Shown: positions 3,992 to 43,235 of the stretch, piece by piece
Numbering within the stretch: position 1 is the first letter of the stretch
Layout: the number at the start of each line of letters is the position of its first letter
Virus record (IMG/VR): IMGVR_UViG_3300046008_000242
Location: 185,363 to 249,362 of that record
Origin: a virus
Lineage: Duplodnaviria > Heunggongvirae > Uroviricota > Caudoviricetes
Length of the DNA stretch: 64,000 nt
Strand: one strand, 5' to 3'
Position numbers and translations under genes: made by a program
Notes under the pieces: model-generated
Told to the model about the DNA's origin: nothing
Seen by the model: the letters and a program-made list of their open reading frames with translations, nothing else
The model's database searches: none

Positions 3992-4063
3992 TTGTAGATC
4001 CTCGAAATAAGATAATAAAGTAATTAGATTCTATTATAGTGATTTTCGAGGAGTTCGAAAGAT

Positions 4064-4548: not shown

Positions 4549-5250
4549 CTATTTTGCGATTACTGTAAATTCATTTTCAGAAATTCGATAATGTGTAATA
4601 TATTCTTTATTTAAGCGTTGTTCAACAATTTCTTGGATTGACATACGACTTGGATAACTTCTGGTTATTAAATCGCCAGTTATATTATATACACCAAAAT
4701 CTTTTTTAAATGTATATTGACGTACATATTTTGGTTTGGATAAAAATTCAATGATTTCTGGGACAGTGTTACAATCTTGTTGTCTTGATAATCCATCAGA
4801 ACATTTATCTTTATGATTTGTAACAAAATACAATCCTTTAACACTTTCATTCACTCTGATATGAGCTGAGATTGAATTGTCATTCCATAATTCAATCCAT
4901 GTATCCAATAATTTACCAGAACGAATAACGTCATTTTTAATCTTAACTTGAAAATTTGATTGAATCTCTCTATTGTTATATACATCCAACAATAATTGGT
5001 TCTTATCGACAATCTTCTCAAGACCAGCATGAGTTGCAATCATTGTAACAAATTCATTCAAATCGTTTTTATTGACTTCGATATAATTGATATCATCTGT
5101 TCCGAAGATCTTAACTTGTTCTGACGGATTGTCATAATGGTCTGCAATCATATATACACATTCATAATCGTAATCTAAATGAGTTTGTGTAATTCCATCT
5201 TCTGTAGATTGTTTTAATTTCAACGCCATTTTATTCTCCAAATTGTTCAA
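4549..5250 (-). CDS. hypothetical protein, 233 aa
   Basis: ORF track. Confidence 0.5.
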   Translation of the reverse strand: MNNLENKMALKLKQSTEDGITQTHLDYDYECVYMIADHYDNPSEQVKIFGTDDINYIEVNKNDLNEFVTMIATHAGLEKIVDKNQLLLDVYNNREIQSNFQVKIKNDVIRSGKLLDTWIELWNDNSISAHIRVNESVKGLYFVTNHKDKCSDGLSRQQDCNTVPEIIEFLSKPKYVRQYTFKKDFGVYNITGDLITRSYPSRMSIQEIVEQRLNKEYITHYRISENEFTVIAK

Positions 5251-5283
5251 TTTCTAAATGTAACCATTTATATTCAAATGATT

Positions 5284-5931
5284 TTAACTCTTCAAGTAAA
5301 TCATGTTCGCCAATTTTTCTGTAAAATAATCATCATACGTCCCTTCTGAATAATAGTAAGAATCATTGACGTAATCTGCATCCAATTCTCCAAATAATTG
5401 TTTTACCACAAATTCAGAACATTCTTGTTCTGTAATCTCAGAATCACTAATCCAATATCTCAATGAAATCTTAGATGTATAACAAGCGTTCGAAATACGT
5501 TCCACCAATGGAGTAAATTCATCCGAACTTAATACAAGAACATTATCTCGTTCCTTGAATTCTTTAAGTTTGATGTAACCAGAAAATTCAATTGTATTAC
5601 TCATATCATTTATCTCTGATTGTATTGTTGTAGAAATTGTATAATGTACAGCAGAAATCTCAATCAACAATTCTGGGGCATTAGAGTAGAAATAAGATGA
5701 ATTGGTTGAACAGACTAACAATCTCATGTCGTCTAATGTGATACAAATTCTGTCTTCATGGTATCCAGGAAACCAGATAACAATCTCACCATTATCTGTT
5801 GTAAAGTTCACTTTGGCAGAAACTTCTTCACCAAGTTGTTCCATGATAGATTTGGCGATATGACCAGTTAATACATTTCTTCCGATTCTGTAAGCAGATA
5901 CCAATCCAACCAATTTATTTTCATTTGACAT
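5284..5931 (-). CDS. hypothetical protein, 215 aa
   Basis: ORF track. Confidence 0.5.
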   Translation of the reverse strand: MSNENKLVGLVSAYRIGRNVLTGHIAKSIMEQLGEEVSAKVNFTTDNGEIVIWFPGYHEDRICITLDDMRLLVCSTNSSYFYSNAPELLIEISAVHYTISTTIQSEINDMSNTIEFSGYIKLKEFKERDNVLVLSSDEFTPLVERISNACYTSKISLRYWISDSEITEQECSEFVVKQLFGELDADYVNDSYYYSEGTYDDYFTEKLANMIYLKS

Positions 5932-6014
5932 TTTTAAATCCTTCTTTTAATTTGATGTAAATTTAAACCTCAAGAGTATTATAATCGATTTCAGATAAGA
6001 TTAAAAGATTATTT

Positions 6015-6386
6015 TTACATTCCTTTGATTGAACCATTAACAGTCGAAACTTCACCTTGGACACTTCCACCAATCTTAACGGATCCATTGGTAGTTTTTA
6101 CATTACCCAAAACGATTCCATCTACTTGTACGTTACCATTGGTTGTCTCAACATTATCCACATTTCCTTGTACAATAATCTTATCGCAAATATCTACATT
6201 TAATGATTCGATATCACCATTGATTTGTATATTGATATTCTTATCATCAGACGATTCTTGAATTTTATCATCAATATACACTTTACCGTTGGCAACTCTA
6301 ACATTGGTTCCAGAACCATAATTCTTACCATTTACAATGATAGAACCACCAACATTATCTGAATTAGATTTATTCCAGAACGCCAT
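6015..6386 (-). CDS. bactofilin-like (polymer-forming, beta-helical repeat) protein
   Basis: Short V/N/G repeats (NGKVYIDD, IQINGDIES, VQGNVDNVETTNGNVQVDGIVLGNVKTTNGSVKIGGSVQGEVSTVNGSIKG) resemble the bactofilin DUF583 repeat. The track start at 6422 is a TTG; the first ATG is at 6386 (MAFWNK). Confidence 0.4.
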   Translation of the reverse strand: MAFWNKSNSDNVGGSIIVNGKNYGSGTNVRVANGKVYIDDKIQESSDDKNINIQINGDIESLNVDICDKIIVQGNVDNVETTNGNVQVDGIVLGNVKTTNGSVKIGGSVQGEVSTVNGSIKGM

Positions 6387-6387
6387 C

Positions 6388-7077
6388 TTATCTCTCCATC
6401 TTCTTAAAAATGTTATTAACAATCAAAGGAACTTGCTCTCCTGCCTTACCTTGGAAGAACTCAAATTCATTATATACATGTTCTGGTTTATTAGGGTCTA
6501 CCAGTAAAATCTTACAATCTTTAGACACAGCATCAACCAGACTGGCGGCAGGATAAACTGACAATGATGTTCCAACCACAACAAGATAATCAAATTGTTC
6601 TTGTTTAATCATATCATAAACAGAATGGAATTCAGTTACATCTTCATGGAAGAATACAATATGTGGTCTTAACTGATTACCTTGTTCGGATAATGTTCCG
6701 ACAAACATATCATCATTCCAATCATATACAAATCCTGTTACCATATCTCTTGCTTTCAGTAATTCGCCATGTAGATGGATTACTCTAGTTGAACCTGCTC
6801 TCTCATGTAAATTATCAACATTAGAAGTAATCACTGTTACATCATGATATTGTTCCAATTCCTTGATAGCATAATGAGCTGGATTTGGTTCAACAGTCTG
6901 AACTTCCTTACGTCGTTTGTTATAGAATTCATGAACCAATTCAGGAGTTTCTCTAAGAGCCTTTGGTGTACATACATCTTCAATCTTGTAGTTGTTCCAT
7001 AATCCATCTGAATCTCTAAAGGTACTCAATCCTGATTCGGCTGATACACCCGCTCCAGTTAAAAATAAAATATTCAT
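6388..7077 (-). CDS. Sir2-family (sirtuin-like) NAD-dependent enzyme lacking the Zn ribbon
   Basis: GAGVSAESGLSTFR (NAD-binding), TSNVDNLHERAG, IHLHGEL (catalytic His). The segment where CobB and Sir2 carry CxxC...CxxC has no cysteine. Confidence 0.75.
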   Translation of the reverse strand: MNILFLTGAGVSAESGLSTFRDSDGLWNNYKIEDVCTPKALRETPELVHEFYNKRRKEVQTVEPNPAHYAIKELEQYHDVTVITSNVDNLHERAGSTRVIHLHGELLKARDMVTGFVYDWNDDMFVGTLSEQGNQLRPHIVFFHEDVTEFHSVYDMIKQEQFDYLVVVGTSLSVYPAASLVDAVSKDCKILLVDPNKPEHVYNEFEFFQGKAGEQVPLIVNNIFKKMER

Positions 7078-7721
7078 ACAATTTCTCTAAATAATTGATA
7101 ATCTTTGATTCTTCTAAGAGCCAAAATGTTATATTGTTCCGCTTGTAATTCAATATCGATTACATTTCTAAATAAATCCAATGAACTTTGGTTTAAATTC
7201 TCAACAACCAATACATCAGTGTCAGCAAGATAAACTTTAGATCTATGGTCGGTTTCAATAATGTAAATCAAACTTTTAAGAATCTCGTTACCTTTCGCTA
7301 CGATAAACCTTTGGTAACATTCTGGTAATTTACCAAATAACATATTACTCCAATGTTTGTAATATCTCCATAATTCAGTAGAGAAATGTTCAGATTTCTT
7401 ATATCCGGATACAATATCTAACATTTCTTTGATTTCAGGATTAAAATCTGTATATTTCAACATAATTGTTATATATAAACCATTAAATGTAATCTCAGAA
7501 AAATTACCTTCATATACACCAGGTTGAACATATGTTTTAACCAACGGAAGATCTTTATATACAGGAACTCCAGCATCATGCGTCGGCAATTTAGTTTTAA
7601 GAACAATTTCTAATACATCATAAAAGAATCTGTTTGATTCCTGCAGTCCGTCTTCTAAATCATATTTGTTTTTAATTACCAAATCTAAAAATCTTGATTG
7701 AATTGTGTTCATGTTATACAT
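7074..7721 (-). CDS. hypothetical protein, 215 aa, translationally coupled upstream of Sir2
   Basis: ORF track; ATGA overlap with the Sir2 gene start. Confidence 0.5.
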   Translation of the reverse strand: MYNMNTIQSRFLDLVIKNKYDLEDGLQESNRFFYDVLEIVLKTKLPTHDAGVPVYKDLPLVKTYVQPGVYEGNFSEITFNGLYITIMLKYTDFNPEIKEMLDIVSGYKKSEHFSTELWRYYKHWSNMLFGKLPECYQRFIVAKGNEILKSLIYIIETDHRSKVYLADTDVLVVENLNQSSLDLFRNVIDIELQAEQYNILALRRIKDYQLFREIV

Positions 7722-7782
7722 TTCCTTTAAGTTAAAATCTAATTGAATTATATTGTTATTTTAATGTTTCGAAAGAAGAATA

Positions 7783-8835: not shown

Positions 8836-8887
8836 TATTTCTCCACAGGAATAAACAATTCATCTAATGATTTCAATGTAATATACA

Positions 8888-8952
8888 CCCTTGAAACTCC
8901 TCTAATTGATTAACATGGTTCTATTATAAATGTTTTACCAATCATCGAAAAG
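8888..8952 (-). promoter_or_regulatory. PeSL-like early promoter cassette (variant)
   Basis: Minus strand reads CTTTTCGATG-N-TATAAT AGAACC, about 50 bp upstream of the 8835 start. Same architecture as the main repeated cassette. Confidence 0.4.
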
Positions 8953-8964
8953 TTTTTCTTTATC

Positions 8965-9002
8965 CAATAAAAAACCTTGCTGATATTTCTACCAACAAGG
9001 TT
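8965..9002 (-). terminator. intrinsic terminator
   Basis: Minus-strand hairpin CCUUGUUGGUAGAAAUAUCAGCAAGG plus UUUUUUAUUGG, downstream of the gene ending at 9072. Confidence 0.5.
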
Positions 9003-9071
9003 CTCCATTACTTATTAAATGTATCCCAGATAGACGACAATATCACGTATCCAATCAACACCAATGTCATC

Positions 9072-12747: not shown

Positions 12748-13086
12748 ATGCATATAACGCAGAAGTCAATAAACGAATTATACAATCATTACAAGGGTTC
12801 AGCTAAGTCAAGATCTATCCCATTCAGGTTGACAAAGGTAGATTTCCACGAATTGTCCTTTCCATTGACATGTCCTATTTTGGGAATACCATTAAGATTT
12901 AATACAGGAAAGAATATGACGGATGATTCATACTCATTGGATAGGATAGATTCATCAAAGGGATATACAAAGGAAAATGTGATTGTTGTGTCAAATAGAG
13001 CAAATATCCTGAAGAGAGATGCTACATTGGAGGAGTTACAAATGATGGCTAAATTTTATGCTGAATTGGATTCTAGTGGAGTGTAA
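12748..13086 (+). CDS. small HNH-family endonuclease, 112 aa
   Basis: SLDRIDSSKGYTKENVIVVSNRANILK matches the HNH_3 core. The real ATG is at 12748 after an AAGGCAAGAGA Shine-Dalgarno; the track ORF 12604.. is an upstream read-through. Plus strand. Confidence 0.65.
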   Translation: MHITQKSINELYNHYKGSAKSRSIPFRLTKVDFHELSFPLTCPILGIPLRFNTGKNMTDDSYSLDRIDSSKGYTKENVIVVSNRANILKRDATLEELQMMAKFYAELDSSGV

Positions 13087-13092
13087 TCTAAT

Positions 13093-13138
13093 ATGACATA
13101 GAGTTGATTGGGTGATATACCGAACGTTCCACTAGAGG
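13093..13138. repeat. 45-bp motif ATGACATAGAGTTGATTGGGTGATATAC-GAACGTTCC-ACTAGAG (contains the 10-bp palindrome GGAACGTTCC)
   Basis: About 90% identical to the copies at 24283, 24738, 25176 and 25634, and to the inverted copy at 28776. Lies immediately 3' of the small HNH gene. Confidence 0.7.
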
Positions 13139-13151
13139 ACAATTAGATGGA

Positions 13152-13391
13152 TTATTCATTATCAATAATTCGTTCTCTAAAGTTCATCTTCATATTATAA
13201 CGTCTATCTCTACATACAGAATATCTAACAGTTCCGATGTAAATTTTATGATACATGTTAGAAGTGTGTTCCCTAAACGAATACCATCTTGAATGGATGA
13301 ATTTGTCGGAGAAGTTATCGAACCATTTAACACTTCTTCGTCTATCTAATTGTTTATATTTCTGTTTCCATAGGATGTCAAAGTTTTCCAT
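13152..13391 (-). CDS. hypothetical basic protein, 79 aa
   Basis: ORF track. Confidence 0.4.
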   Translation of the reverse strand: MENFDILWKQKYKQLDRRRSVKWFDNFSDKFIHSRWYSFREHTSNMYHKIYIGTVRYSVCRDRRYNMKMNFRERIIDNE

Positions 13392-13974: not shown

Positions 13975-14284
13975 TAGATCGATAATCTTCTATGTTCATT
14001 GTGTGAATCCTATTGATGTAATCTTTAGCGAACAATAGATCTCCTTCAAATTCTTGTCGCGTTCGTCTAGAGAATTGTTCTCTAGCTTGTATAATCGAAG
14101 GATCTAATTCCATATCACTTGAGCAACACATTCTCTTTCCTTCTTATTCTTATCAAGATAAATTGCTGTTCTAACTATTCCAGAATGACCAACTCCATCA
14201 TCAAATGGTTCTTCTTTGTATCTAATCAATTGATGTGGAGGTTTGGTGTATATAGGATAAAATGGTTTGATGTTCATTTACTCT

Positions 14285-14322
14285 CCAATAAAAATCTGCC
14301 ATGTTATTCATGACAGATATAT
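14285..14322 (-). terminator. intrinsic terminator
   Basis: Minus-strand hairpin UCUGUCAUGAAUAACAUGGCAGA plus UUUUUAUUGG. Confidence 0.55.
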
Positions 14323-14337
14323 CTTACTACAATTCAA

Positions 14338-15015: not shown

Positions 15016-15023
15016 TTTTATCT

Positions 15024-15060
15024 CCAAATAAAAAGTCTGCCATGAATTAACATGACAGAC
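15024..15060 (-). terminator. intrinsic terminator
   Basis: Perfect minus-strand hairpin GUCUGUCAUGUUAAUUCAUGGCAGAC plus UUUUUAUUUGG. It is a paralogue of the 14285 terminator. Confidence 0.6.
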
Positions 15061-15065
15061 TTATT

Positions 15066-20805: not shown

Positions 20806-21081
20806 TCACATTTTAACAATTATTTCTAACGAACCAAGCGTTAGAACAGGTTTACATACATTATACAATCCAACAAATTCTTGGATGAAGATAGTTTCAA
20901 ATCTTCCGATTGTTTGTGTTTTAGAATCAAATTTAAACTTGACGCCAACGCAACCATTTTCGTTTGTTGTAATGATAAAACGTTTTGGTAACAATTCACC
21001 ATTTAACGAGATTGAATAAACGGTTTTTGTTTGACCAGATTTAGTTATTTTTCTAATTATTGTGGCATTATATATTGTCAT
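20806..21081 (-). CDS. hypothetical protein, 91 aa
   Basis: ORF track; first gene downstream of a PeSL promoter. Confidence 0.5.
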   Translation of the reverse strand: MTIYNATIIRKITKSGQTKTVYSISLNGELLPKRFIITTNENGCVGVKFKFDSKTQTIGRFETIFIQEFVGLYNVCKPVLTLGSLEIIVKM

Positions 21082-21111
21082 GGCGATAACCTATTAGATA
21101 ATTGTTTTAAT

Positions 21112-21172
21112 TTCATTGGATTCCTCCAACTTGAAATCTATTATAAAGGTTATCTTTAACATCGAAAGAATT
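21112..21172 (-). promoter_or_regulatory. PeSL-like early promoter cassette
   Basis: Minus strand reads ATTCTTTCGATGTTAAAGATAACCTT-TATAAT-AGATTTCAAGTTGGAGGAATCCAATGAA. It combines a TTTCGA -35-like element, a 16-17 nt spacer, TATAAT, and a leader hairpin UUGGA-GGAA-UCCAA. It overlaps the 3' end of the lipase ORF. Confidence 0.6.
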
Positions 21173-21802
21173 TTCTAAACATTTTATATAATAATTAATG
21201 TTATGTGAATCTGGGATAAACTTCCCAGTCAATCTATCCTTGATTCTATCAAATGTGTTGTATCCTTTTGTTATTTGACCTTTGGAATTGATATAGATTA
21301 ACTGACCATGATGGAAATAAGGATATAACGGAGTCATGGGTGCGTAATCATAAGCAGCAGAAAATCTATAATGTTCAACCTTTGTATTATTGACAAATCT
21401 GTTTGACCCTATTCTGGGTGAACCGAATGTGTATATAATAACATCTTCTCTTTGTATTAGATGAGAAAATACAACAGCGATTGCTCCACCTAAAGAATGA
21501 CCGGTCAACCACAATTTCTTGTTATCATCTAATCTATGTTTGATTAGACCAAATAAGATTTCCGAATACGCCAAGAATCCAGATTGGACACCATCCCTAA
21601 ATTTGAACGATACGTCCACAATCCAATCTTCAGGTTCATCTGTACCCCTGAAAATAATTATTTGTTCCGTTTTAGATTCCAGTAAGAATGCTTGTGCACC
21701 ATTATCTGAAAATAATTCAACAGAATATCCTTCTACATGTAATCTATCATTATATGATTGTTTGGATAAATTAGCAAAGAATAATGCATCATATAAATTC
21801 AT
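21113..21802 (-). CDS. class-3 lipase-like alpha/beta hydrolase
   Basis: GHSLGGAIA nucleophile elbow, plus upstream FRGTDEPEDW and the following YTFGSPRIG characteristic of the lipase_3 family. The track start at 21826 is a TTG; the first ATG is at 21802. Confidence 0.65.
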   Translation of the reverse strand: MNLYDALFFANLSKQSYNDRLHVEGYSVELFSDNGAQAFLLESKTEQIIIFRGTDEPEDWIVDVSFKFRDGVQSGFLAYSEILFGLIKHRLDDNKKLWLTGHSLGGAIAVVFSHLIQREDVIIYTFGSPRIGSNRFVNNTKVEHYRFSAAYDYAPMTPLYPYFHHGQLIYINSKGQITKGYNTFDRIKDRLTGKFIPDSHNINYYIKCLENSFDVKDNLYNRFQVGGIQ

Positions 21803-23701: not shown

Positions 23702-23893
23702 TTACCCTTTACAAACCATTGAATAACCTAAGATGGAACCTTCATTCATCTTACGCAATAAGATTTCATATTCTTGTTTTGTTCTGAGACATTCAGAATA
23801 TGTTGGAAAATCAAATTTGATTTCTTTTGTGATTGTTTGATTTGGGAATGCGGAGATACCCAAGGACAAGATGGAAATGATTAAAGTAGTCAT
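23702..23893 (-). CDS. small secreted protein, 63 aa
   Basis: N-terminal signal-peptide-like MTTLIISILSLGISAF. Confidence 0.45.
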   Translation of the reverse strand: MTTLIISILSLGISAFPNQTITKEIKFDFPTYSECLRTKQEYEILLRKMNEGSILGYSMVCKG

Positions 23894-23921
23894 ATGTTAA
23901 CCTCTAATGTGAATTGAAAGA

Positions 23922-23980
23922 ATCATTGGTGAACCAACTTGAAATCTATTATAACGGTTTTAATTGGAGTCGAAAGAATT
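23922..23980 (-). promoter_or_regulatory. PeSL-like early promoter cassette (variant)
   Basis: Plus strand reads cattggtgaaccaacttgaaatctattataacgg...gtcgaaagaatt. The stem here is TTGGT/ACCAA. Confidence 0.5.
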
Positions 23981-24098
23981 ATTATGGGATATGATTAAAA
24001 TATATGGATGTATCTATGTTGAAATAAAGTCGAGGAATACACTAGAACATAATATAGTAATATTAAATGACCTAACGAACATAACTCAAAGGATCGAC

Positions 24099-24134
24099 AT
24101 AGTCTATCATACTACTCTTTCTACCATTTCGAAA
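24099..24134 (-). promoter_or_regulatory. sigma70-like promoter of repeat unit 1
   Basis: Minus strand TTTCGA-N17-TATGAT. There is no terminator before PeSL 23922, so it probably reads into gene 23702..23893. Confidence 0.4.
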
Positions 24135-24394
24135 GGAGTATCGGATGTTGATGTTTACACATTCTATGTCTAAGATTACTCTTTCGATGATTAATGTATC
24201 GAAATAATCTTCATATATTCTTTCGATATGTTGAATTAACAGCAGACGTCCATATTTGGATTATATGGAACGTAAATTACACATGACATAGAGTTGATTG
24301 GGTGATATACAGAACGTTCCACTAGAGTGGATTAACGTCCAAATAATGGATGATTTGATGTATATTATTGGTAGAGAAAATGTAAATTATACGC

Positions 24395-24574
24395 AATAAA
24401 AATCCCGAAGGAACTTTTGGTTCTCAACGGGATCTAAATGTGGCTCGAAGATTTTATATGGGAATATTGTTGTAAATGAATGTCTATAATATGAATAATA
24501 AACGTCTAAGTTATGATATAGTGATATTAAAACCATATAAACATAATTAATATACCTAACTCAAAGTGTCGACA
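24395..24574 (-). ncRNA. candidate ORF-less small RNA, about 180 nt (repeat unit 2)
   Basis: Minus-strand promoter TTGACT-N17-TATAGT (plus-strand coordinates 24581-24609). About 175 nt downstream lies an intrinsic terminator (hairpin AUCCCG...CGGGAU plus UUUUUAUUGCG, 24395-24433). The longest ORF is under 20 aa. Confidence 0.45.
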
Positions 24575-24825
24575 TAGTCTACTATAACGAGGTTTCATCG
24601 AAAAGTCAAGAGAAATCTTTAATTGATTATATCAAGCTCGATGCGTATTTGTATCCTTTCGATGATTAAGACTCTTTCGATATGTCATTATTACAAGAAA
24701 CGTCTATATTTGTTGTATATTGTTCGTTTATTTTATATGACGTAGAGTTGATTGGATGATATACAGAACGTTCCACTAGAGTCCATTAACGAGCAAATAA
24801 TGGATGTTATAAGAAACCTTTACGC

Positions 24826-25000
24826 AATAAAAATCCTGTTTAGATATTATTCTAAACAGGATGAAATGGGGTTCGAATGATTTTATATGTCGATAATGAA
24901 TATAATAAACATCTAAATGCATATAATAAAGTCGAGGAAGACACTTGATAATATTAAACCATCTAAATGTAAACAACGGATATAACTCAAAACGTCGACA
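24826..25000 (-). ncRNA. candidate ORF-less small RNA, about 175 nt (repeat unit 3)
   Basis: Promoter TTTCGA-N17-TATACT (25007-25035). Terminator hairpin AUCCUGUUUAGA...UCUAAACAGGAU plus UUUUUAUUGCG (24826-24862). Confidence 0.45.
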
Positions 25001-25263
25001 TAGTCTAGTATAATGGAGTTTTATCGATTTCGAAAGGAGTTTAAGACTCTGGTAGATATTGAATCGATGTTTATTTGCATCCTTCGATGATTAAGATTAC
25101 CATTAAAGACTCTTTCGATATGTTGATTATACATTGTCGTTCCATATTTGTCTATTATTGCTCGTTTATTTTACATGTCATAGAGTTGATTGGGTTGTAT
25201 ATGAAACAATGCATTAAGATGGATTATTGGACAAATAATGGATGTTATAAGAAACCTTTACGC

Positions 25264-25451
25264 AATAAAAATCCCACTCAGAAACTAATCTGGTGGGATG
25301 ATTAAATGGATTCGAAGGTTTTTATATGGGAATAATGTTGTAAATGATAGTCTTAATATGATTAGTTAATGTATAATAAACGTCTAAGTTACATTAAAAC
25401 ATAATATAGTAATATTAAATGACCTAAAGAACATAACTCAAAGGATCGACA
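25264..25451 (-). ncRNA. candidate ORF-less small RNA, about 188 nt (repeat unit 4)
   Basis: Promoter TTTCGA-N17-TATGAT (25458-25486). Terminator hairpin AUCCCACC...GGUGGGAU plus UUUUUAUUGCG (25264-25299). Confidence 0.45.
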
Positions 25452-25840
25452 TAGTCTATCATAATGGAGTATTAGAGATTTCGAAAGGAGTATCTTTCCG
25501 TGTATATTACATACTCGATGTCTAAGATAACTCTTTCGATGATTAAGATATCTCTAACATCGAAACATTCTTTCGATATGTCATTATTACACAGGAACAC
25601 TTATATTTGTTGATTAAACAATGTTAATTATACATGATGTAGAGTTGATTGCTCCGTATATTAAAGATTCCATTAGAGTGGATTATTGGACAAATAACAG
25701 ATGGTTTGGTGTTTATTCTATATAAAATAACAATACACAATAAAAATCCAGGTTTGAGTTTCTGACTCTTTCGATGTCGAGATTATCAGTTTGGATATAT
25801 CGTACAAATAAATATCTTTATACAACAAAAAGGAACCTAC

Positions 25841-28684
25841 ATGAAAACATTCTCTGAATTACGCAAACAAATAAACGAAAACAGTCTATATACATCTCAA
25901 CAGGAGAAAGATGACTTCCTGAAAGATAAGAAGAACATCGTCAATGCATTCCTTTATTCGTTTATCGGTAATCTATCATTATACAACAAAGACCCAGCAA
26001 AAGCTAAACATTATTTTGTTGGCGATAAGAAATTACAGATCCAAAACATCACTGATGATAACAATGATGCATCGTTAATCCTAAAGATTATGCATGATGA
26101 AGGTGGTTTCAAGAATTCAAACACAGCCAACAATCTAACCAAACTGTTGGCAAAATTGAAAGTTTCTGATGTAACATTAGATGATACTCTAATGAGAAGT
26201 TGGTTGGCAGATATCTCTCCTTCTTTCCATTCGGTTATTCCAACAGAATTGAAAAAGACTGTTGATGATTACACTCATGGTATCACCAGTTTCGATAGAT
26301 TAAGTTACAAATTGTACAAACATAAAACTGCGTATGGCGATGGAGAGTACCTAGCATTGGCTAAGAAGGTTGGTCGAATTGATAGACATACACATAAACC
26401 AAAAGTTGTTAGTCAAACTCAACCTGCTCCTACTGTAACTCCAGTTACACCAACAATCTCTAATCCTCAGATTGTGGTTCCGGTGGTTAATACAACAACT
26501 GTAACGTCTATTACTCCACCAGATGTTGTAGATGAACCTGTGGTGTTAGAACCACAACCAGAAGTTAAACAATTCAATCAAGAATTGTATGATAGAGTTT
26601 TAAAAAAAACCAAATATCTTTCGACATCTTATCTTGTTCAATTAGATGAATCTGATGTTAAAGAATTGGTGGAAGATTCTGAAGTGTTGATGAAATTAAT
26701 GGAAGATTATCCTAGATTCTTTGGCGATTCTTTAAATCCCTATCAATTTGAAATGGCTAGAGATTATATAATGAAAAATTATACAGAAGAATCAATTATT
26801 AAATTGGGTAAAAATAAAGAAAACTCAATTTGGATTAAATATGATATAAAACAATCTATCAAAATTCTGAATAAAAGAAACATAGACGCCACTAAAGTTT
26901 ATGATGCAATGATTATTGCTCCATATATTTGCGACAAAGATATTGGTATATCTGGGCAACAGATTCTTGATTTTTATGAAAAAAATAAAATTCTAATTTC
27001 ACCAGATAACGGTAATAAGATTGCGCGAGATTTCCCTGAGATATTAGTTGATGCTGTTAAGTTGACAATCAAGGACATGGGTGTCGGATATGTATCTACA
27101 ATGGCTGTTAAATTGAATGAACAACAGATTGATGATGCATTTCCTATTGATAACAAATTATTGGCTCCATTAAATGTTATCTTAACGGGTAGATTGTATA
27201 AAGATTCTTCTGAATTACTAAAGAAATACAATAACAATGAAGTATTGATTATTCAAGCATTAACGGACACTAGCACCCCACATTTTACACCTTACATAAA
27301 TTCATTGAATAAATTGTTCTTCGAGGATATGGATAAATGGTATCCATGGGAACGAAAATATAATTACATGAAACAATTATTAACTAAACCAAATGCCATT
27401 GATTATTTCAACGATAAATTCAAATATGCATTTACTGATGATGGAGTTTTTGATTATTTCTCAGATAAAGAAAGATTAGATGGTATCTCATCATCTTTAT
27501 TCGATTTAATGGTGACCAATTATAAAACAAAATCTGATATTGTTGATTCTTTATTCAATGACCTTGGCGACAAGATTAAATCTAAAGTGAAAAAGAACTT
27601 CGATTCAACATTTAAAGTTATGCACGATTTGAAAAATAGTGCGTTACCAATTAAAGAAGATCTAGACGCAAAGGGTATTAAGAAGATTTTAGAATTCAAC
27701 GGGATTGACCTTAGTGTTATTTCTGGTAATAAAATGAAATTCTCCAAGAATAAATCGTTGAGTCAATCTATTAATGAATATATGAAAGATGGCACCAACA
27801 TCATCGAACCATTAAAAATTGTTGAATTAAAAACAACAGAAGCAGAAAATAAGAAGGTGACTGAGAAGATTGTAAATGAAACTCATTCTGGTGGCAGACA
27901 CGGAGATATCTATCCGTTAATCTTACGTCAATTTGAAGTTCATCTACCTGACGTTCAATTCCAAGAGTTTAAAGAATTGATGATTAAGAATAACACACAT
28001 TCTGAAATTATACCCGCATTCCATGGAACTGGTTCTATAGCAGCCAATATGATTCTTAGATATGGATTTAAAGTTATTCCTGAAAATGATAATTCAGGAA
28101 TTGGTGTTGCTGGTAGAATGTTAGGTGATGGTATCTACTTTGGAACCAATATTGATAAAGTGTTACAATATGTAGGTAATGCTGGAATGACTAGACGATT
28201 GGGAACGACTGGATATGTATTTGAAATGGAAAATGAATTGGGTGTGCAGGGTGAAGATTACACTTCTGCTGGTTTAGGTGGAGATAGAATTGTTTCTCCT
28301 GAATGGTGCGTCTATAATGCCAATAAACAATTAAAAATTATTAAGGCTTACGAAGTGAAATTAGTTGATAGAGCAGAACTAGATAAGACGTTGAATGAAG
28401 CAACCAATAATAGAATGATGTCATTTAAAGAATTCAATAATGCCAAGAAGAACAATTATACATCATACAATTTCTATGACAGAAATGTTATAACACCAGA
28501 TGGTAAAATCATCAAATCATCAGATGTAAATGATAAGACGTTTAAGAAAGGAATTAGAGTTGAGATTCGCGGGAAGATTACATCGATTATCATACCAACT
28601 CGACAATTAGAATTCAATGATATATTATCTTGTTATGATTTACAAGATAATGCATTAAACAAGTATCTTAAATTGGTGAATTAA
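25841..28684 (+). CDS. 947-aa multidomain protein with a C-terminal PARP-like (H-Y-E) ADP-ribosyltransferase domain
   Basis: Plus-strand ORF with ATG at 25841 and an AAAGGAA Shine-Dalgarno. The C-terminus reads AFHGTGSIAANMILRYGF...GRMLGDGIYFGTNIDK...SPEWCVYNANKQLKIIKAYEVKL. This aligns with the PARP1 catalytic signature LWHGSR...GKGIYFAD...YNEYIVYD..LKYLLKL, with H, the Y of GIYF and E all conserved. A Pro/Thr-rich linker PAPTVTPVTPTISNPQIVVPVV sits near residue 200. Confidence 0.75.
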   Translation: MKTFSELRKQINENSLYTSQQEKDDFLKDKKNIVNAFLYSFIGNLSLYNKDPAKAKHYFVGDKKLQIQNITDDNNDASLILKIMHDEGGFKNSNTANNLTKLLAKLKVSDVTLDDTLMRSWLADISPSFHSVIPTELKKTVDDYTHGITSFDRLSYKLYKHKTAYGDGEYLALAKKVGRIDRHTHKPKVVSQTQPAPTVTPVTPTISNPQIVVPVVNTTTVTSITPPDVVDEPVVLEPQPEVKQFNQELYDRVLKKTKYLSTSYLVQLDESDVKELVEDSEVLMKLMEDYPRFFGDSLNPYQFEMARDYIMKNYTEESIIKLGKNKENSIWIKYDIKQSIKILNKRNIDATKVYDAMIIAPYICDKDIGISGQQILDFYEKNKILISPDNGNKIARDFPEILVDAVKLTIKDMGVGYVSTMAVKLNEQQIDDAFPIDNKLLAPLNVILTGRLYKDSSELLKKYNNNEVLIIQALTDTSTPHFTPYINSLNKLFFEDMDKWYPWERKYNYMKQLLTKPNAIDYFNDKFKYAFTDDGVFDYFSDKERLDGISSSLFDLMVTNYKTKSDIVDSLFNDLGDKIKSKVKKNFDSTFKVMHDLKNSALPIKEDLDAKGIKKILEFNGIDLSVISGNKMKFSKNKSLSQSINEYMKDGTNIIEPLKIVELKTTEAENKKVTEKIVNETHSGGRHGDIYPLILRQFEVHLPDVQFQEFKELMIKNNTHSEIIPAFHGTGSIAANMILRYGFKVIPENDNSGIGVAGRMLGDGIYFGTNIDKVLQYVGNAGMTRRLGTTGYVFEMENELGVQGEDYTSAGLGGDRIVSPEWCVYNANKQLKIIKAYEVKLVDRAELDKTLNEATNNRMMSFKEFNNAKKNNYTSYNFYDRNVITPDGKIIKSSDVNDKTFKKGIRVEIRGKITSIIIPTRQLEFNDILSCYDLQDNALNKYLKLVN

Positions 28685-28894: not shown

Positions 28895-29362
28895 TCATTC
28901 TTTAATTGGTTCTACTTTAAAATTAACAAATGTCAATTTAGTGCCTTGTAATTTACAAGATAACTCTTCGATCTTCTGTATCTCATCATCACTTGGCGTA
29001 TACATAATTGATACATGTGGTATGTATTCGGAATACGAATGTTTATATCCGATATTGACCAATGCATTAAACTGGGATACTAGATCTGGTGATTCTAATG
29101 TCAACGCAACAGCACCCCATTTAGAACCTTTCTCTCCAAGTAATTTACAGCCAGATACAACTCCAACAAATTTATCATGTAATGGTTCCACTTTAAATGC
29201 TGGATTAGATACATCATACATTAACGTTACATGTAAATCATCGATGACGCTTATTCCACTTTCATGAAAAAACTCTTTCAATTGTTTTGAATCATCATCC
29301 GATAATCTAACAGCCACGTATCCACCTTTGTGTTGTTTCCATTCTTCAAATGTTAGCATCAT
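28895..29362 (-). CDS. 2H phosphoesterase, Acb1-like (candidate anti-CBASS/anti-Pycsar cyclic-nucleotide phosphodiesterase)
   Basis: 155 aa with two H-x-T/S-x motifs: DLHVTLMY (His at residue 44) and IPHVSIMY (His at residue 116). Size and spacing match the 2H fold of T4 Acb1 (gene 57B). Confidence 0.6.
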   Translation of the reverse strand: MMLTFEEWKQHKGGYVAVRLSDDDSKQLKEFFHESGISVIDDLHVTLMYDVSNPAFKVEPLHDKFVGVVSGCKLLGEKGSKWGAVALTLESPDLVSQFNALVNIGYKHSYSEYIPHVSIMYTPSDDEIQKIEELSCKLQGTKLTFVNFKVEPIKE

Positions 29363-30805: not shown

Positions 30806-31019
30806 TTGCACTTTGTTCTTTCCAATCAAGCCTTAAATCATTTTGTTTAAGATATCCCACTATAGAATCATGGATTACATTTCTGAAACATTGATGTAAT
30901 TTGAATCCAGGAATCTTAATTCCAATGTTCTTTGAGATCCATACAGAAACTTCTTTTTCTGTATAATTGACCAATTCGCGTATCTGGTGGTCTTTTAATC
31001 CATTCATATCAACCAACAC
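30798..31019 (-). CDS. hypothetical protein, 73 aa
   Basis: ORF track. Confidence 0.4.
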   Translation of the reverse strand: MLVDMNGLKDHQIRELVNYTEKEVSVWISKNIGIKIPGFKLHQCFRNVIHDSIVGYLKQNDLRLDWKEQSAND

Positions 31020-31398
31020 CTTTATGTTCTAACCATCTATTCCTAAATTCCCATAACACAGTAGCCTGACAATTATTCCCTTCTTTCCCGAATATATCAG
31101 ATAACCCAGAATACTTTGTCAATTCATCTAACAACAGAGGATTTTCCTGTAGATATTCCAACCATAACTGTTTATACAATGTTGTACATTCTTTCATGTT
31201 GATAATCGAATGGAGTTTCTGATATTGTTTACATGATTTGGGATCTAACCCAGTAACTCCATCATCAAACACTTTAGATGATTGATAGATGTTCTCAATA
31301 GTATCGTTCCTTCTTTTAATGTAAGCAAAGAAAGTCGAAAATCGTTTATCTCCTTTCGATGAACATTCAAGGAAAGGTTCTTCCCCGCGTCTAACCAT
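31009..31398 (-). CDS. hypothetical protein, 129 aa
   Basis: ORF track. Confidence 0.5.
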   Translation of the reverse strand: MVRRGEEPFLECSSKGDKRFSTFFAYIKRRNDTIENIYQSSKVFDDGVTGLDPKSCKQYQKLHSIINMKECTTLYKQLWLEYLQENPLLLDELTKYSGLSDIFGKEGNNCQATVLWEFRNRWLEHKGVG

Positions 31399-31822: not shown

Positions 31823-31880
31823 AAAATATCCTATCTAAAAGAAAACCGATATGAACTTAATCATATCGGTTTGAAAAATG

Positions 31881-32453
31881 TTATACGTTGATACCAAATT
31901 GATTTGCCAATGTTTTTAATCCACCAGCATATCCTTGACCAACAGCTTTGAACTTCCATTCATTATTGTATCTATAAACCTCACCAAAAATCATTGCCGT
32001 CTCTGATGACATATCTTCAGTCAAATCAAATCGTAATACTTCAATTCCAGTGTCTTTATTGACTAATCGAATATACGCATTTTTAACTTGACCGAAATTC
32101 TGACGGCGTTGTTCCGCATCATGAATCGTCACAGTAATACTAATCTTATCGACAGACGAATCAACTAATGTTAATTTAATTGTAATCTGTTCATCATCAC
32201 CTTCACCAGACCCAGTCAAATTATCGCCAAGATGTTCAACCGAATTATCAACAGATTTCAATTGATTGTAGAAGATGAAATCAGAATCACTTCTAACTTT
32301 ATCATTTTTCAAAAGAAATGCCGAAGCATCTAAATCAAACGGACTACCATCAGTGGTTCTAGCATCCCAACCTAATCCAACAATAATGTTTGTTAAAGAT
32401 GGATCTGTTTTAGTTAATGAAAGATTGTTGCCTTTTTGTAATGTTAATGCCAT
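31881..32453 (-). CDS. TerD-domain stress-response protein
   Basis: [27 protein letters not shown] ... [15 protein letters not shown] ... [14 protein letters not shown] matches the TerD/TerE/TerZ pattern. Confidence 0.8.
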
Positions 32454-32464
32454 GATATGAATTC

Positions 32465-33148
32465 CTATAGATAAGTTTTTTGAATTGTTGAAATGATTCC
32501 GTCTAATGTTCTATCGTTAGTGGGTTCTCCGATGGCATTAAACTTCCATGAATCTTTGTGTCTATACAATTTACCAAGAACCATAGACACTTTATTGTTG
32601 AACGTTGAATCTTTTGCGATATTGTATCCAGCTAATACATCATCCACTCTAGTTGGAGTTCCTTCATAAATTCTAATTGAAGCAAATGGAATACTATCAA
32701 ATTGTTGACCTCTATATGAATTCAAAACAATAAAGATTTGGTCAACAGATGATTTCACTCTGGTTAGATCTAATGTGATGATTTCATTATCTAAACCATC
32801 ATCTCCGTTTGAATCTCCAACTAGGTCGTCGCCAGAATGTTTAATTCCAGTTCCATTTAATTTACCATAATAGATTGTCTCATCTTTAGAATTACCTTGG
32901 AATGTAATACAACTAACATCCAAATCAACAGCTGTTCTTCCAATCATACCCCAATTGACACCAACGCAGACGTTTGTTAATGATTTCCCATTCTTTTCTA
33001 ATGAAATACGTTGACCTTTAACCAGAGTGAGTTTAGGTTGTTTCTGTTGTTGAACTTGTTCGATTGAATTCTGTACAATTTGTCTAGTTGTATTAACAGA
33101 CCCTTCGATGTTATCGACCACTGTTCTGATTGCGTCAAAAATGCTCAT
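32465..33148 (-). CDS. TerD-domain protein (second, divergent paralogue)
   Basis: [24 protein letters not shown] ... [19 protein letters not shown] ... WKFNAIGE. Confidence 0.7.
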
Positions 33149-33223
33149 AATATATTTGTTTCCTTTGTTGACTTATTGTTAAACAAGTCAACATTATAAT
33201 GGATTTATTTAAAAAGTAAAGGA

Positions 33224-34693
33224 TTAAAGATTATCTGATACAATCTTACGAATTTCAGCTAATGATGTTTCCTTAACCAACTTGCCGTCTTTGAATACAA
33301 CTTCTAAACATCCATGTTTTTCATGCTTTGGTTCAACATTATCATTCAATGTATATTGACCATTTTCATGAGATACCATCAATAGACCTTTAGCTGATTT
33401 CTTAGTCCCATCATCCGTTTTTGGATCTTTGAAGATAACTCTTGATTTACCGTTAATTATTGCATAAGTGGATTTAAGTGCAAAACCATGAGTATCTCTT
33501 GTCACATATCCCAACGAATACGAACCAATTCCAAATACTATATTATTAGAAGCAAATCCTTTTTGTTCTAATCTGACGAAAATAGATTGTTGTCGATCTA
33601 ATGTGATAGAATCGCCATAGATAGTGCCAATTTTTGGATTTAATACTTTATAACCTTTAGAGTTAATTGTTCCACCAAAAGTATCCCATAAACATTCAAT
33701 TAAACCTTTGTCTTCTGGCAAACATCCACCTATGATAGGATATATTCCACAAATAATATCAACTGGGTCGCCTGAATCAGGTCTTATAACCAATTTACCT
33801 TCTCGGGATTCAATTCTATCCTTTAATGTAGGAAGATATTCAGTAACAACTTTCCAAAAATCATAACTATCCGCCACATATGAAACGATACCAGTTGGAT
33901 AAACTTCTGTTATAATTCGGGTCAACGTTTCTAATTCATCTTCGTGTCCTCCTGAACAAACTACACTATGTTCGCTTGCTGGTACAGAATATGCTATGTC
34001 CGTTGTTGCTCCATAATATTCTTTAGCAAGTAAGATAGCTGGTATCGTATCTGTTCCTTTTGAACCAGTTGCAATAAAAGCAAACCCAGAAATTGCAGCA
34101 GCTTCTTTACATTGCATACCTCTCATACTAAAATCATGTTGTTGGAAAGGAACAAATGAATTATCATCACATGTCTTTTCTGAAAACTCTAAACTTTTAT
34201 TATAAAATGCTCGTGATGTGGTTGCGGTTGAACAAGGTAACCAAAGTTCTGCGGATAATACAGTTTCAATCATATTAGTCACCCAGAAGAATTCAGGTAA
34301 CGTATTTTTAATTGTTAAAACAGGTACACCATATGGAACAAACGAACCTTCTGGTAACGCTTTAATTTCAATTGGAAGATACCCTAAGTCATATAACGAT
34401 TCAATATGACTGACATTAGTTTCTCCTAATGAATCATCAACAATTTCTTTATATGACTGGATAACGAAATCTTTGGGTTGTTTAAAGAATGTTTCGCCCC
34501 ATTCGCGGATTAAATGTTTAATAATAAAGTATTGTAATCCAATAAAGTAAATACCTTTAGATCCAGGAATGTTTGATAATCTACCCGAACGAGGTGTAAA
34601 GTTAGAATAAATTAATTCCGTCCCTTTTGGATATTGATTAACATGTGACACTTTATAAAAATCTTTTTGTAATGGTGCAAAATTTGTAGACAT
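33224..34693 (-). CDS. nicotinamide phosphoribosyltransferase family protein (NAMPT/NadV-like; alternatively a Namat-type NAD-reconstitution enzyme)
   Basis: 489 aa. N-terminal DFYKVSHVNQYPKGT (the NAMPT DSYK.THY.QYP motif), GTDTIPA, SVPASEHS, and the overall NAMPT length. The track start at 34705 is a TTG; the first ATG is at 34693. Confidence 0.8.
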   Translation of the reverse strand: MSTNFAPLQKDFYKVSHVNQYPKGTELIYSNFTPRSGRLSNIPGSKGIYFIGLQYFIIKHLIREWGETFFKQPKDFVIQSYKEIVDDSLGETNVSHIESLYDLGYLPIEIKALPEGSFVPYGVPVLTIKNTLPEFFWVTNMIETVLSAELWLPCSTATTSRAFYNKSLEFSEKTCDDNSFVPFQQHDFSMRGMQCKEAAAISGFAFIATGSKGTDTIPAILLAKEYYGATTDIAYSVPASEHSVVCSGGHEDELETLTRIITEVYPTGIVSYVADSYDFWKVVTEYLPTLKDRIESREGKLVIRPDSGDPVDIICGIYPIIGGCLPEDKGLIECLWDTFGGTINSKGYKVLNPKIGTIYGDSITLDRQQSIFVRLEQKGFASNNIVFGIGSYSLGYVTRDTHGFALKSTYAIINGKSRVIFKDPKTDDGTKKSAKGLLMVSHENGQYTLNDNVEPKHEKHGCLEVVFKDGKLVKETSLAEIRKIVSDNL

Positions 34694-34714
34694 AATATCT
34701 CTCAATAATTTATT

Positions 34715-35980
34715 TTAAAAATCATATAGTGGAAGTTTACCAACTAACCAATTAGTATCAACTGTTTCATTTTTGTTTAAAATTTTTTCTTCTTTTGTTG
34801 TTGGATTATACACCCAATGCTCTTTTCTTGTAATTACTATTTCATGAGGTTTGATTTCCGCAAAAATAATGTTATACACCCCAATCTCATGAATTGATCT
34901 TACTGTAGTTTTACCTTTATATTTTTTTGAATATAAACCAGTTTTAAATTCTTCAATTGTTATATAAACACGGTTTCCGTTCATATCAATTGCGGAAACC
35001 ATACCAATTGATGTTCCATTATAATTTCCAGAATCGAATTCTTCTTTAGAAATTTGTCTAGTTGTTCCATTTTCATCTTTTATTATAACTTTACCTTTAT
35101 TTACATGTTCATACTCATGTATATTTTCTTTATTTATTCGTAAATTATTTCCATTTTCGTCTTTTACAATTACAAAGCCTTTATTTACTCCATCATAGTT
35201 GCCAGAATCGAATTCTTCTTTAGAAATTTGTCTAGTTGTTCCATTTTCATCTTTTATTACAACTTTACCTTTACTAATACCAACAAAAATATTACTATAA
35301 AATTCGTCAGATTTGATCCTAATAATTTTACCATTTTCATCTAATGCTACGACAAATCCAGAACTAGGAGTAATATAATTTCCAGAATCGAATTCTTCTT
35401 TAGAAATTCTTTTTGTACATTCGGTATCATTTAAAATAACTACAAAGCCTTTATTTACTCCATCATAGTTGCCAGAATCGAATTCTTCTTTAGAAATTTG
35501 TCTAGTTGTTCCATTTTCATCTTTTATTACAACTTTACCTTTATTATTACCAACATAATTTCCAGAATAAAATTCTTTAGTTGTGATCCTAATAATTTTA
35601 CCATTTTCATCTAATGCAGAAACAAATCCTCTATTATAATAAAAATTTTCATATTTAGTTTTATATTTTTTATTATCGTCGCCGACCATCATTGTTAATG
35701 AAAATGACATCGAAAAATTTTTAGGGTATATTTTAGTTAATAAAATATGGGCAATAATATGTTGTTCGAATGTTAAAACAACGCCATTCCAAGGAAACTC
35801 TTTTATATTTTTATATTCTGGAAATAAATCTTTTGCTTTTGGACAAATATGATGAACTTCACAATAAATACTCTTTCCTATAAATTTATTTTTTATCCTA
35901 CATTTTTCTATGAAATTTTTATAATGATTGATATAAAATTCATTGCATGGTTTTGTTTTTAAAATTTCTAAATAATCCAT
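34715..35980 (-). CDS. Mob-like HNH homing endonuclease inserted between the NAMPT fragment and the full NAMPT gene
   Basis: EVHHICPKAKDLFPEY plus repeated GNY...KGxVVI modules. It is a paralogue of the HNH at 57006..58253. Confidence 0.75.
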   Translation of the reverse strand: MDYLEILKTKPCNEFYINHYKNFIEKCRIKNKFIGKSIYCEVHHICPKAKDLFPEYKNIKEFPWNGVVLTFEQHIIAHILLTKIYPKNFSMSFSLTMMVGDDNKKYKTKYENFYYNRGFVSALDENGKIIRITTKEFYSGNYVGNNKGKVVIKDENGTTRQISKEEFDSGNYDGVNKGFVVILNDTECTKRISKEEFDSGNYITPSSGFVVALDENGKIIRIKSDEFYSNIFVGISKGKVVIKDENGTTRQISKEEFDSGNYDGVNKGFVIVKDENGNNLRINKENIHEYEHVNKGKVIIKDENGTTRQISKEEFDSGNYNGTSIGMVSAIDMNGNRVYITIEEFKTGLYSKKYKGKTTVRSIHEIGVYNIIFAEIKPHEIVITRKEHWVYNPTTKEEKILNKNETVDTNWLVGKLPLYDF

Positions 35981-36500
35981 AACATAATAACCTTTTTAAA
36001 TTTAAGTTATAATTATTTATAAATTTTCTTGTCGCCGATGTGATAGGCAACCACATTTCACAACTCAATACAGTTTCAATGTAATTAGTCAACCAGAAGA
36101 ACTCTGGTTTGTTATTGATAACAGTTAATAATGACACTTTAAATGGAACAAATGAACCTTCTGGTAATGCTTTGATTGTGATAGGAAGATATCCCAAATC
36201 ATGTAATGCTTCGATATGAGATACATCCATATCTGTATTCAACATTTTATCCACAAATCGTTTGTATTTTTTAACGACTTGTTCTTTTGGTTTATTGAAG
36301 AAGGTTCTATTCCATTCATCGATAAGATATTCTTTGATGAAATATTGTAATCCTACAAAATAAACACCTTTACAATCTTTGATTCCAGAATGTTTACCAG
36401 AACGAGCAGTGAAGTTTGAATACACCACTTCCGTTCCTGTAGGATATTGAAAAATGTGTCCCAATTTATATGCGTCTGTTGATAATAATGCGTCGCTCAT
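35940..36500 (-). pseudogene. truncated NAMPT paralogue, N-terminal about 165 aa only
   Basis: MSDALLSTDAYKLGHIFQYPTGT...PEFFWLTNYIETVLSCEMWLPITSATRKF is collinear with residues 8-175 of the full NAMPT, at an estimated 60% identity. Reading then continues into unrelated sequence until a stop. Confidence 0.6.
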
Positions 36501-36726
36501 GTTGTTCTCCTAGTTAAAATAATTTGTTTTCTTTTACATTCATCTTGGTATGCTCGTATTATGCGTAATCAATAACATTTTTAGAATTTTTGTATTCTTA
36601 ATTGTATTAAGACCAAACATGGGAGTCAAATCAAGTTTATCACCGTTGCTTGTAACTTCCAAATCCTCAATCTTATTATTATCGATATTTCTGAAAAAGT
36701 CAAGAGCAGATTTAAAATCATTTAAT

Positions 36727-38308: not shown

Positions 38309-38341
38309 TTTATACCACCTTTATAAATTGTTTGATTTAAG

Positions 38342-43211: not shown

Positions 43212-43235
43212 GATAATAACCTCTTAAATGAATGA

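Follow-up and report, generated by a model that had tools for sequence, protein, structure and literature searches.

What is the conserved block of about 60 base pairs (bp) that lies at positions 21,112 to 21,172 of the DNA analysed here, and why does it recur along the genome? The DNA is a 64,000-nucleotide stretch (64 kb; the window) of a Caudoviricetes virus, positions 185,363 to 249,362 of IMG/VR record IMGVR_UViG_3300046008_000242, and an earlier note made from its letters had described the block as a mobile early-promoter-plus-stem-loop (PeSL)-like cassette. The block is a regulatory signal and not demonstrably a mobile element. Its sequence makes it likely to be the consensus promoter by which this T4-like phage would express genes before the late stage. 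Copies are named below by the first T of TATAAT on the minus strand, and the focal copy, at 21145, is arranged as follows:

21113 to 21802, minus strand: lipase/esterase gene (Lipase_3), its last 18 codons encoded by the cassette

21137 to 21169, minus strand: focal promoter core TCTTTCGA-N16-TATAAT-AGA, within the 3' end of the lipase open reading frame (ORF)

21115 to 21130, minus strand: leader hairpin GTTGGA-ggaa-TCCAAT of type A, one of two leader subfamilies; an exact match with a minimum free energy (MFE) of -5.7 kcal/mol and a shuffle p of 0.012

21082 to 21114, minus strand: remainder of the type A 5' leader, reaching the ATG of a gene of unknown function that encodes 91 amino acids (aa; 20806 to 21081)

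The window appears to come from a distant, uncultured T4-like phage, since its DNA polymerase is only ~41% identical to the best match among GenBank phages, in T4-like cyanophages, and megablast of the window against GenBank phages returned no record matching at the DNA level. It has a G+C content of 31%, carries its genes almost all on the minus strand and encodes UvsX, a Dda-like helicase, an RNA ligase, NAMPT and a family-B DNA polymerase interrupted by an HNH-type ORF. Exact-pattern scans of IMG/VR yielded a single related phage, R5 (IMGVR_UViG_3300046005_000547, 235 kb), which is collinear with the window at a nucleotide identity of about 70-80%; the comparison covered 116 kb of R5, and these hold about 20 further distinct copies of the promoter. 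IMG/VR contigs of the sister samples 3300046004 and 3300046011 are 100% identical to R5, and a Logan contig is identical to the window. Relatives were also sought among JGI metagenome contigs, which gave chance matches only, in a GTDB-based collection with one genome per bacterial or archaeal species, which gave one chance match and no relative, and by way of lipase homologues, which led to an unrelated phage. A literature search found no paper on a TTTCGA/TATAAT phage promoter.

The motif TTTCGA-N16-TATAAT occurs nine times in the window, on the minus strand only (60271, 53760, 43261, 38375, 23953, 21145, 8928, 7752 and 4038), against 0.29 copies expected. None of 100 shuffles reached nine, and a chance origin of the repeat was rejected on these controls. 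All seven sites that the earlier note had listed as full copies are among the nine, those at 7752 and 4038 being additional, and its two partial copies are real as well (48728 and 54938, with the degenerate -35 box TCTTTCTT). A weight-matrix scan of the window found no promoter copy on the plus strand. The -10 box does not mark the end of the conserved sequence: four copies have TATAATAGATTTCAAGTT letter for letter, and seven matches to a relaxed form of it were counted against 0.10 expected. Taken over the window and R5, 33 distinct copies fit one consensus of 45 nucleotides (nt), taARAwAat - TCTTTCGA - tg - N6 - AaAa.C.T - TATAAT - AGA.tt.aa.tt, in which the box, the -10 element, the C three bases before it and the AGA are each found in 29-33 of the 33; eight positions of the box are nearly invariant (30-33 of 33 copies at each). 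A accounts for 54% of the 12 nt that precede the box. The spacer, previously given as 16-17 nt, is 16 nt in every TTTCGA/TATAAT copy of the window.

Every copy stands ahead of a minus-strand gene start, as had been claimed, with 19-87 nt between the end of the -10 box and the start codon in the window, and all end in a Shine-Dalgarno sequence of the GAGG/GGTGG type followed by ATG. They head runs of small minus-strand genes that mostly lack known relatives, and the genes directly after the cassettes have no PHROG or Pfam match. Genes nearby that can be named have typical T4-type early functions (Acb1, NADAR, NAMPT, phosphoribosyl pyrophosphate (PRPP) synthetase, Dda and a DexA-like nuclease), and the window has only 3 occurrences of the T4 late motif TATAAATA, against 13.9 expected.

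Comparison with R5 indicates what is being conserved. For six window copies R5 has a counterpart at the same position, and in these pairs the box and the -10 element are ~100% identical and the 18 nt after the -10 are 89% identical, as against 54% in the spacer. At 38375, 100% identity to R5 is seen both in the upstream terminator and over the 44 nt that follow TATAAT, within flanking coding sequence of ~75-80% identity. The focal copy has retained its box, -10 and first transcribed bases, while its spacer has diverged. This pattern points to selection on the signals and not on a protein or on the whole block, the copies staying at fixed positions in both phages under what would be selection on the boxes and first transcribed bases.

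The lipase ORF crosses the 21145 copy and ends at the TGA in CCAATGA, inside the hairpin, so that 18 codons from TCT TTC GAT to the stop are read from the cassette; the read-through is present in both phages. The resulting tail, SFDVKDNLYNRFQVGGIQ (SFDV...YNRFQVGGIQ), runs past the end of all lipase homologues outside the window phage and R5, which bears out the earlier claim that the cassette can supply coding sequence. Tail residues encoded by the boxes are kept and those encoded by the spacer differ between the phages (VKDNL versus VNKNH), and the constraint therefore acts on the DNA signal.

The proposed promoter would consist of an A-rich stretch resembling an UP element, the invariant TCTTTCGA(tg) at the -35 position, a 16-nt spacer ending in AaAa.C.T, a perfect TATAAT and AGA. 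The earlier reading of the block as a promoter holds for this make-up and for its place ahead of small-gene runs, from which we infer an activity that would depend on the host sigma factor and precede the late stage. Transcription would probably start ~7-8 nt after the -10 box, and the transcript would enter a leader of 20-90 nt ending with the Shine-Dalgarno sequence and the ATG, each copy serving a run of small minus-strand genes. Early promoters of T4 are read by the host sigma-70 and combine a non-consensus -35 element near GTTTAC with TATAAT and A-rich upstream tracts. The window copies resemble them in the perfect -10, a -35 element beginning with TTT at standard spacing, the A-rich upstream sequence, an information content well above that of host promoters, and the large number of same-strand copies that precede small early genes. 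They differ in having TTTCGA with an invariant CG, a conserved C at -15 and AGA, and a spacer of 16 rather than 17 nt.

A second group of promoters of the same family lies in a tandem array that bears on how the box is read:

24000 to 25800, minus strand: array of four tandem units of ~450 bp, found also in R5 (locus L009, about 5250 to 7000)

This 1.8-kb stretch has no ORF longer than 70 aa. The units carry TTTCGA-N17-TATACT/TATGAT or TTGACT-N17-TATAGT, with a conserved 5' end AGACTATGTCGAC. Downstream of the promoter, three of the four units have ~180 nt of non-coding AU-rich sequence and then an intrinsic terminator, the stem of which shows covariation from unit to unit; the remaining unit, with its -10 ending at 24106, lacks the terminator. 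Inverted CTTTCGAT boxes on the plus strand and a GGAACGTTC palindrome lie between the units. In both phages one unit has a canonical TTGACT 17 nt upstream of its -10, exactly in the slot that TTTCGA takes in the sister units, and this interchange suggests that the box fills a -35 slot of the sigma-70 type. The array itself could be a small-RNA cluster, a regulatory hub or a replication origin. A part-copy of the array repeat (CTAGTGGAACGTTC..TATATCACCCAATCAACTCTATGTCAT) is present at 13062-13176, in a 487-nt gap upstream of promoter 12712 (repeat family D2).

The leader hairpin TTGGA-N4-TCCAA, put forward earlier as a part of the cassette, is exact in only two window copies, 21145 and 38375. 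Four others have different stems: TTGGT-tc-ACCAA at 23953, a weak TTGGA-aaa-TTCAA at 60271, and a stronger stem of 8 bp, GTTRAGGG-N5-CTCTTAAC, at 53760 and 48728. The remaining five (43261, 8928, 7752, 4038 and 54938) have none. Over the window and R5, a hairpin near the leader start is found in only 9-10 of 34 distinct promoters, and the idea of a fixed promoter-plus-stem-loop unit does not stand. The hairpin is a trait of two leader subfamilies, to which it is confined, and not of the cassette as such; a shuffle p below 0.05 was reached in 7 of the 34, against 1.7 expected. Type A comprises 21145, 38375, the degraded 60271 and four R5 copies, which have ~60 nt in common from the leader start to the Shine-Dalgarno sequence, and the variant hairpin at 23953 (A') begins at the same place. 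Type B comprises 53760, 48728 and one R5 copy, and all other copies have unrelated leaders.

Within each subfamily the leader would be shared by common descent, type A transcripts starting with AAGUUGGA-nnaa-UCCAAU and type B transcripts with GAAGUURAGGG-N5-CUCUUAAC, and in both a hairpin of 6-8 bp would sit ~3 nt from the predicted 5' end. Run on six copies of type A, RNAalifold gave the 6-bp stem only, with no covariation and no wider structure; the stem is invariant and the loop varies (GGAA, AGAA, ACAA). The A, A' and B stems begin in the same register (GUU...) and their inner pairs differ in a compensating fashion, G-C to A-U at two pairs and A-U, U-A or G-C at a third. All five mismatches seen in the arms are G-U on the sense strand, which would favour an RNA structure over a DNA palindrome, in a count that is biased because the hairpins were selected with folding rules that permit G-U.

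Most plausibly the hairpin is a 5' stabiliser, one that would shield the message from decay dependent on the 5' end. The 5' untranslated region of ompA is an example of a stabilising stem-loop at the 5' terminus of a bacterial mRNA. The leaders here are like such elements in having a short hairpin a few nucleotides from the predicted 5' end and no terminator tail, and they differ in that the 5' end is a predicted one and the stems, at -3 to -9 kcal/mol, are short and weak. A role as an intrinsic terminator or attenuator was rejected for lack of a U-tract: the hairpins sit downstream of the -10, and the bases after them read GAAC or AAAA, with no U-tract in any copy. Also rejected was a conserved leader peptide from the ATG in TCCAATG, the frame and length (3-13 codons) of which vary, with an indel shifting the frame in R5. 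A RegB-type cleavage site fared no better, as GGAG is present in the loop of 21145 alone and the other loops read AGAA or ACAA. Membership of a known RNA family was rejected on Rfam searches, with no match in the whole window at the gathering score and none in 23800-25900 at E <= 1.

Several observations weigh against the promoter reading and the hairpin role attached to it. TTTCGA shares only three of six positions with TTGACA and lacks the G at the third, and recognition by an unmodified host sigma factor is therefore not assured. The promoter is predicted from sequence. Twenty-four of the 34 promoters have no hairpin, which must then be dispensable for promoter function, and the type A stem never varies, which leaves the structural evidence resting on a comparison of subfamilies that are perhaps not homologous there. 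Finally, the plus strand of the array, which is non-coding, carries eight CTTTCGAT copies that lack a -10 at promoter-like spacing and look more like protein-binding sites.

These last points lead to an alternative that we hold to be possible, if on the unlikely side, namely that the copies are activator-dependent promoters of the 'middle' type, in which TCTTTCGATG would bind a phage factor acting as MotA/AsiA do in T4 and would not serve as a -35 hexamer for the host. A box of 8-10 nt that is nearly invariant is conserved far beyond a usual -35 element; it departs from TTGACA at key positions and spans, by our own count, about -36 to -27, overlapping the range of the MotA box. CTTTCGAT is enriched in the window (16 copies versus 2.7 expected), and equivalents of the array boxes are kept in every R5 repeat. 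The MotA box of T4 is TGCTTtA at 11-13 bp from the -10. Middle promoters of T4, which join this box to a sigma-70 -10 and are driven by MotA/AsiA, are matched in the nearly invariant box of 8-10 nt near -31, in the sigma-70-type -10 and in the occurrence of the box away from promoters, as expected of a factor binding site; they are not matched in the sequence of the box (TCTTTCGA) or in its distance to the -10 (16 bp). The array unit in which TTGACT takes the slot of the box also speaks against an activator site. No Pfam match to MotA, AsiA, a sigma factor or a helix-turn-helix protein was found among the window proteins scanned, which represent 64 kb of a 249-kb genome, and a separate class of canonical early promoters is not visible in the 64 kb (113 sigma-70-like matches versus 130 in shuffles). 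In a wider and rather doubtful version, TCTTTCGATG would be the site of an unknown transcription factor encoded by the phage, whose T4-like lineage would have no recognisable MotA or AsiA, and this factor would bind the array boxes too; the array would be a regulatory hub, small-RNA cluster or origin under the same control, and the copies would be kept alike by short-patch gene conversion.

In the published accounts drawn on here, a PeSL comprises an AT-rich region, a stem-loop that terminates transcription and directly precedes an early promoter of the sigma-70 type with -35 and -10 boxes about 17 nt apart, and then the Shine-Dalgarno sequence and start codon of the next gene; PeSLs are sited in hyperplastic regions, among small non-essential genes and near indels, and recombine into mini-circles (PMC4122927; PMC2839356). 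The block resembles the elements reported there for RB49/phi1, T4/PST and KVP40/nt-1 (Arbiol 2010, PMC2839356; Comeau 2014, PMC4122927) as a repeated, conserved intergenic unit of ~60-110 bp, in which an A/T-rich stretch and -35 and -10 boxes are followed by a Shine-Dalgarno sequence and ATG. It resembles them too in lying among small genes with no assigned function, in an early region of high variability where 65% of the junctions differ from R5, and three window copies are terminator-plus-promoter composites:

38421 to 38459, minus strand: intrinsic terminator directly upstream of the 38375 promoter, 100% identical in R5

43296 to 43329, minus strand: intrinsic terminator directly upstream of the 43261 promoter

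8966 to 9006, minus strand: intrinsic terminator upstream of the 8928 promoter

These three, which have longer intergenic gaps, are the only ones of 11 window copies with an upstream intrinsic terminator; in the majority the preceding gene reaches its stop codon only 5-10 nt short of the box, which leaves no space for a stem-loop there. The PeSL stem-loop, as those accounts present it, is the upstream terminator, whereas the recurrent hairpin here lies downstream in the leader, has no U-tract and is absent from most copies. The published boxes are TTGACA, TTTACW and TTGYVH, against TTTCGA here, and the window copies are not enriched at indel junctions. The architecture claimed earlier thus does not apply, and the block is not a PeSL in the strict sense; it is akin to a T4-type early promoter with a sometimes built-in leader.

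It could still move in the PeSL manner, recombination between copies inserting, deleting or swapping gene modules and the copies marking the module junctions. We consider this quite unlikely, and mobility of the block is unsupported. The boundaries of some differences between the window and R5 do coincide with a cassette edge: the two phages have different genes after 21145, with similarity stopping at the start codon there, and at 43261 similarity begins exactly at the box. Blocks present in one phage only may also begin with their own promoter, as with P5983 and a 215-aa gene, P46019 and three genes, and two R5-only cassettes each heading one extra gene; P33198 and two TerD genes form a further block with its own promoter, the genes of which are placed elsewhere in R5. 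In a rough manual tally such blocks make up ~5 of ~35 events, about the chance level given that 13% of junctions have a promoter. Window genes of at least 45 aa were mapped onto R5 by tblastn and each junction between neighbours was scored as conserved or broken. Of the promoter junctions 9 of 14 were broken, as were 59 of 91 others (odds ratio 0.98, one-sided p = 0.64), in a test of low power since 65% of all junctions are broken, which saturates the comparison, and only a distant relative exists. Among the ten strongest copies, four of eight scorable junctions were broken. The claim of modular shuffling, including the proposed check of the flanks in a relative, thus finds no support here, and most cassettes occupy the same position in both phages.

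One feature hints weakly at exchange between copies: the last 8 nt of the spacer are more alike within a genome (0.80) than between same-position copies across genomes (0.67), an excess that 4 of 64 label swaps reach. Morons are self-contained insertions of promoter, gene and terminator in phage genomes. The blocks with their own promoter recall them, and most cassettes differ from them in heading conserved gene runs and not single inserted genes. A transposon or a miniature inverted-repeat transposable element was rejected: the block has no terminal inverted repeats or target duplications, and its orientation and start-codon distance are fixed.

A regulatory role of the leader hairpin, as an antiterminator-loading RNA hairpin comparable to lambda boxB or as a palindromic DNA operator for a repressor of early genes, seems very improbable: a short invariant type A stem with a variable, A-rich loop of 4-5 nt directly after a promoter would suit it, as would the intrinsic terminators inside the downstream runs (one lies before the DNA polymerase gene after P60271), but only a minority of promoters carry the hairpin, P60271, which would most need read-through, has the weakest one, the G-U mismatches on the sense strand alone argue against an operator, and no candidate binding protein was identified.

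The other cassettes and partial copies of the window are the following:

60222 to 60295, minus strand: cassette with a degraded type A leader, ahead of an 85-aa gene and the DNA polymerase gene

54914 to 54962, minus strand: partial copy TCTTTCTT-N16-TATAAT-AGA with a 19-nt leader

53706 to 53784, minus strand: type B cassette with hairpin GTTGAGGG-attca-CTCTTAAC at 53724 to 53744 (MFE -9.1)

48677 to 48752, minus strand: partial copy with -35 box TCTTTCTT and an intact type B hairpin at 48692 to 48712 (repeat family D11)

43212 to 43285, minus strand: cassette without hairpin, R5 similarity starting exactly at TTCTTTCGA

38309 to 38399, minus strand: type A cassette, with core at 38367 to 38399, hairpin at 38345 to 38360 and leader up to the ATG at 38308

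23894 to 23977, minus strand: cassette with variant hairpin GTTGGT-tc-ACCAAT at 23925 to 23938

8836 to 8952, minus strand: cassette with a CTTTTCGA box and an 87-nt leader, without hairpin

7713 to 7776, minus strand: promoter copy TCTTTCGA-N16-TATAAT without hairpin, missed by the earlier note

3992 to 4062, minus strand: promoter copy without hairpin, likewise missed, with a same-position copy in R5 locus L031

The weak hairpin of the 60271 leader spans 60243 to 60257, and this leader has a 16-nt deletion relative to R5. The R5 counterpart of the 23953 copy retains the promoter and not the hairpin. Directly following the 53760 cassette is an ORF for a hydrophobic protein of 33 aa (MKKLERLSWMLFCCWVFVPMVIFVVTLTKEMLA, 53606-53705, minus strand), which is kept in R5 and was missed by length-filtered ORF calling. 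Intrinsic terminators also lie within minus-strand gene runs, far from promoters, at 59812-59963, 55830-55888, 49934-49986, 31823-31880, 15016-15065 and 14278-14337. One of them separates the first gene of the 60271 promoter from the DNA polymerase gene, and this implies that the polymerase gene is reached by read-through or has another promoter.

Several neighbouring genes show signs of insertion or rearrangement. The DNA polymerase gene (55889-59811) is split into parts of 517 and 366 aa by a homing endonuclease-like ORF of 415 aa (57006-58253), and the R5 polymerase is a single protein of 863 aa. The full NAMPT gene lies at 33224-34705 and its 5' part is duplicated at 36030-36503; between the two is a 421-aa ORF (34715-35980) with internal 234-nt repeats, which may be a mobile insertion as it has a domain in common with the HNH-type ORF of the polymerase gene. 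In R5, NAMPT is uninterrupted and the 421-aa ORF is absent. Two genes with TerD domains (31881-33198) are headed by a promoter of their own (TTTACT-N16-TATAAT at 33198), after which comes a perfect palindrome of 8 bp, GTTGACTT-N10-AAGTCAAC; in R5 the pair lies ~5 kb away, directly after the homologue of the gene at 38006-38308.

Early genes related to counter-defence or nicotinamide adenine dinucleotide (NAD) are found at 28895-29362, 31009-31398, 6388-7077 and 37136-37990, the set being Acb1 (anti-CBASS), a NADAR antitoxin-like protein, a SIR2-family protein and a PRPP synthetase near NAMPT. The sole large plus-strand gene (25841-28684, 947 aa, phrog_18612) has a weak match, below the curated cut-off, to a PARP / ADP-ribosyltransferase catalytic domain, and might encode an RNA polymerase-modifying enzyme similar to Alt. 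Within the plus-strand ORF 1786-2766 (DUF7487), positions 2170-2307 hold a 69-nt tandem repeat of 80% identity.

The promoter family described here is real, well conserved and of a known type, and its unusual points are confined to the invariant TCTTTCGA box and the reuse of that box in the non-coding array. Gene shuffling driven by the cassette, which would be the most interesting claim if true, is unsupported by the single comparison that is possible. The consensus is usable for an uncultured T4-like phage of 249 kb and its one known relative, and helps to define transcription units among genes of unknown function and counter-defence genes such as those for Acb1, NADAR and the NAD+ salvage enzymes. 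New biology might come only from this box and its second use in the array, in the form of a new way of directing RNA polymerase.

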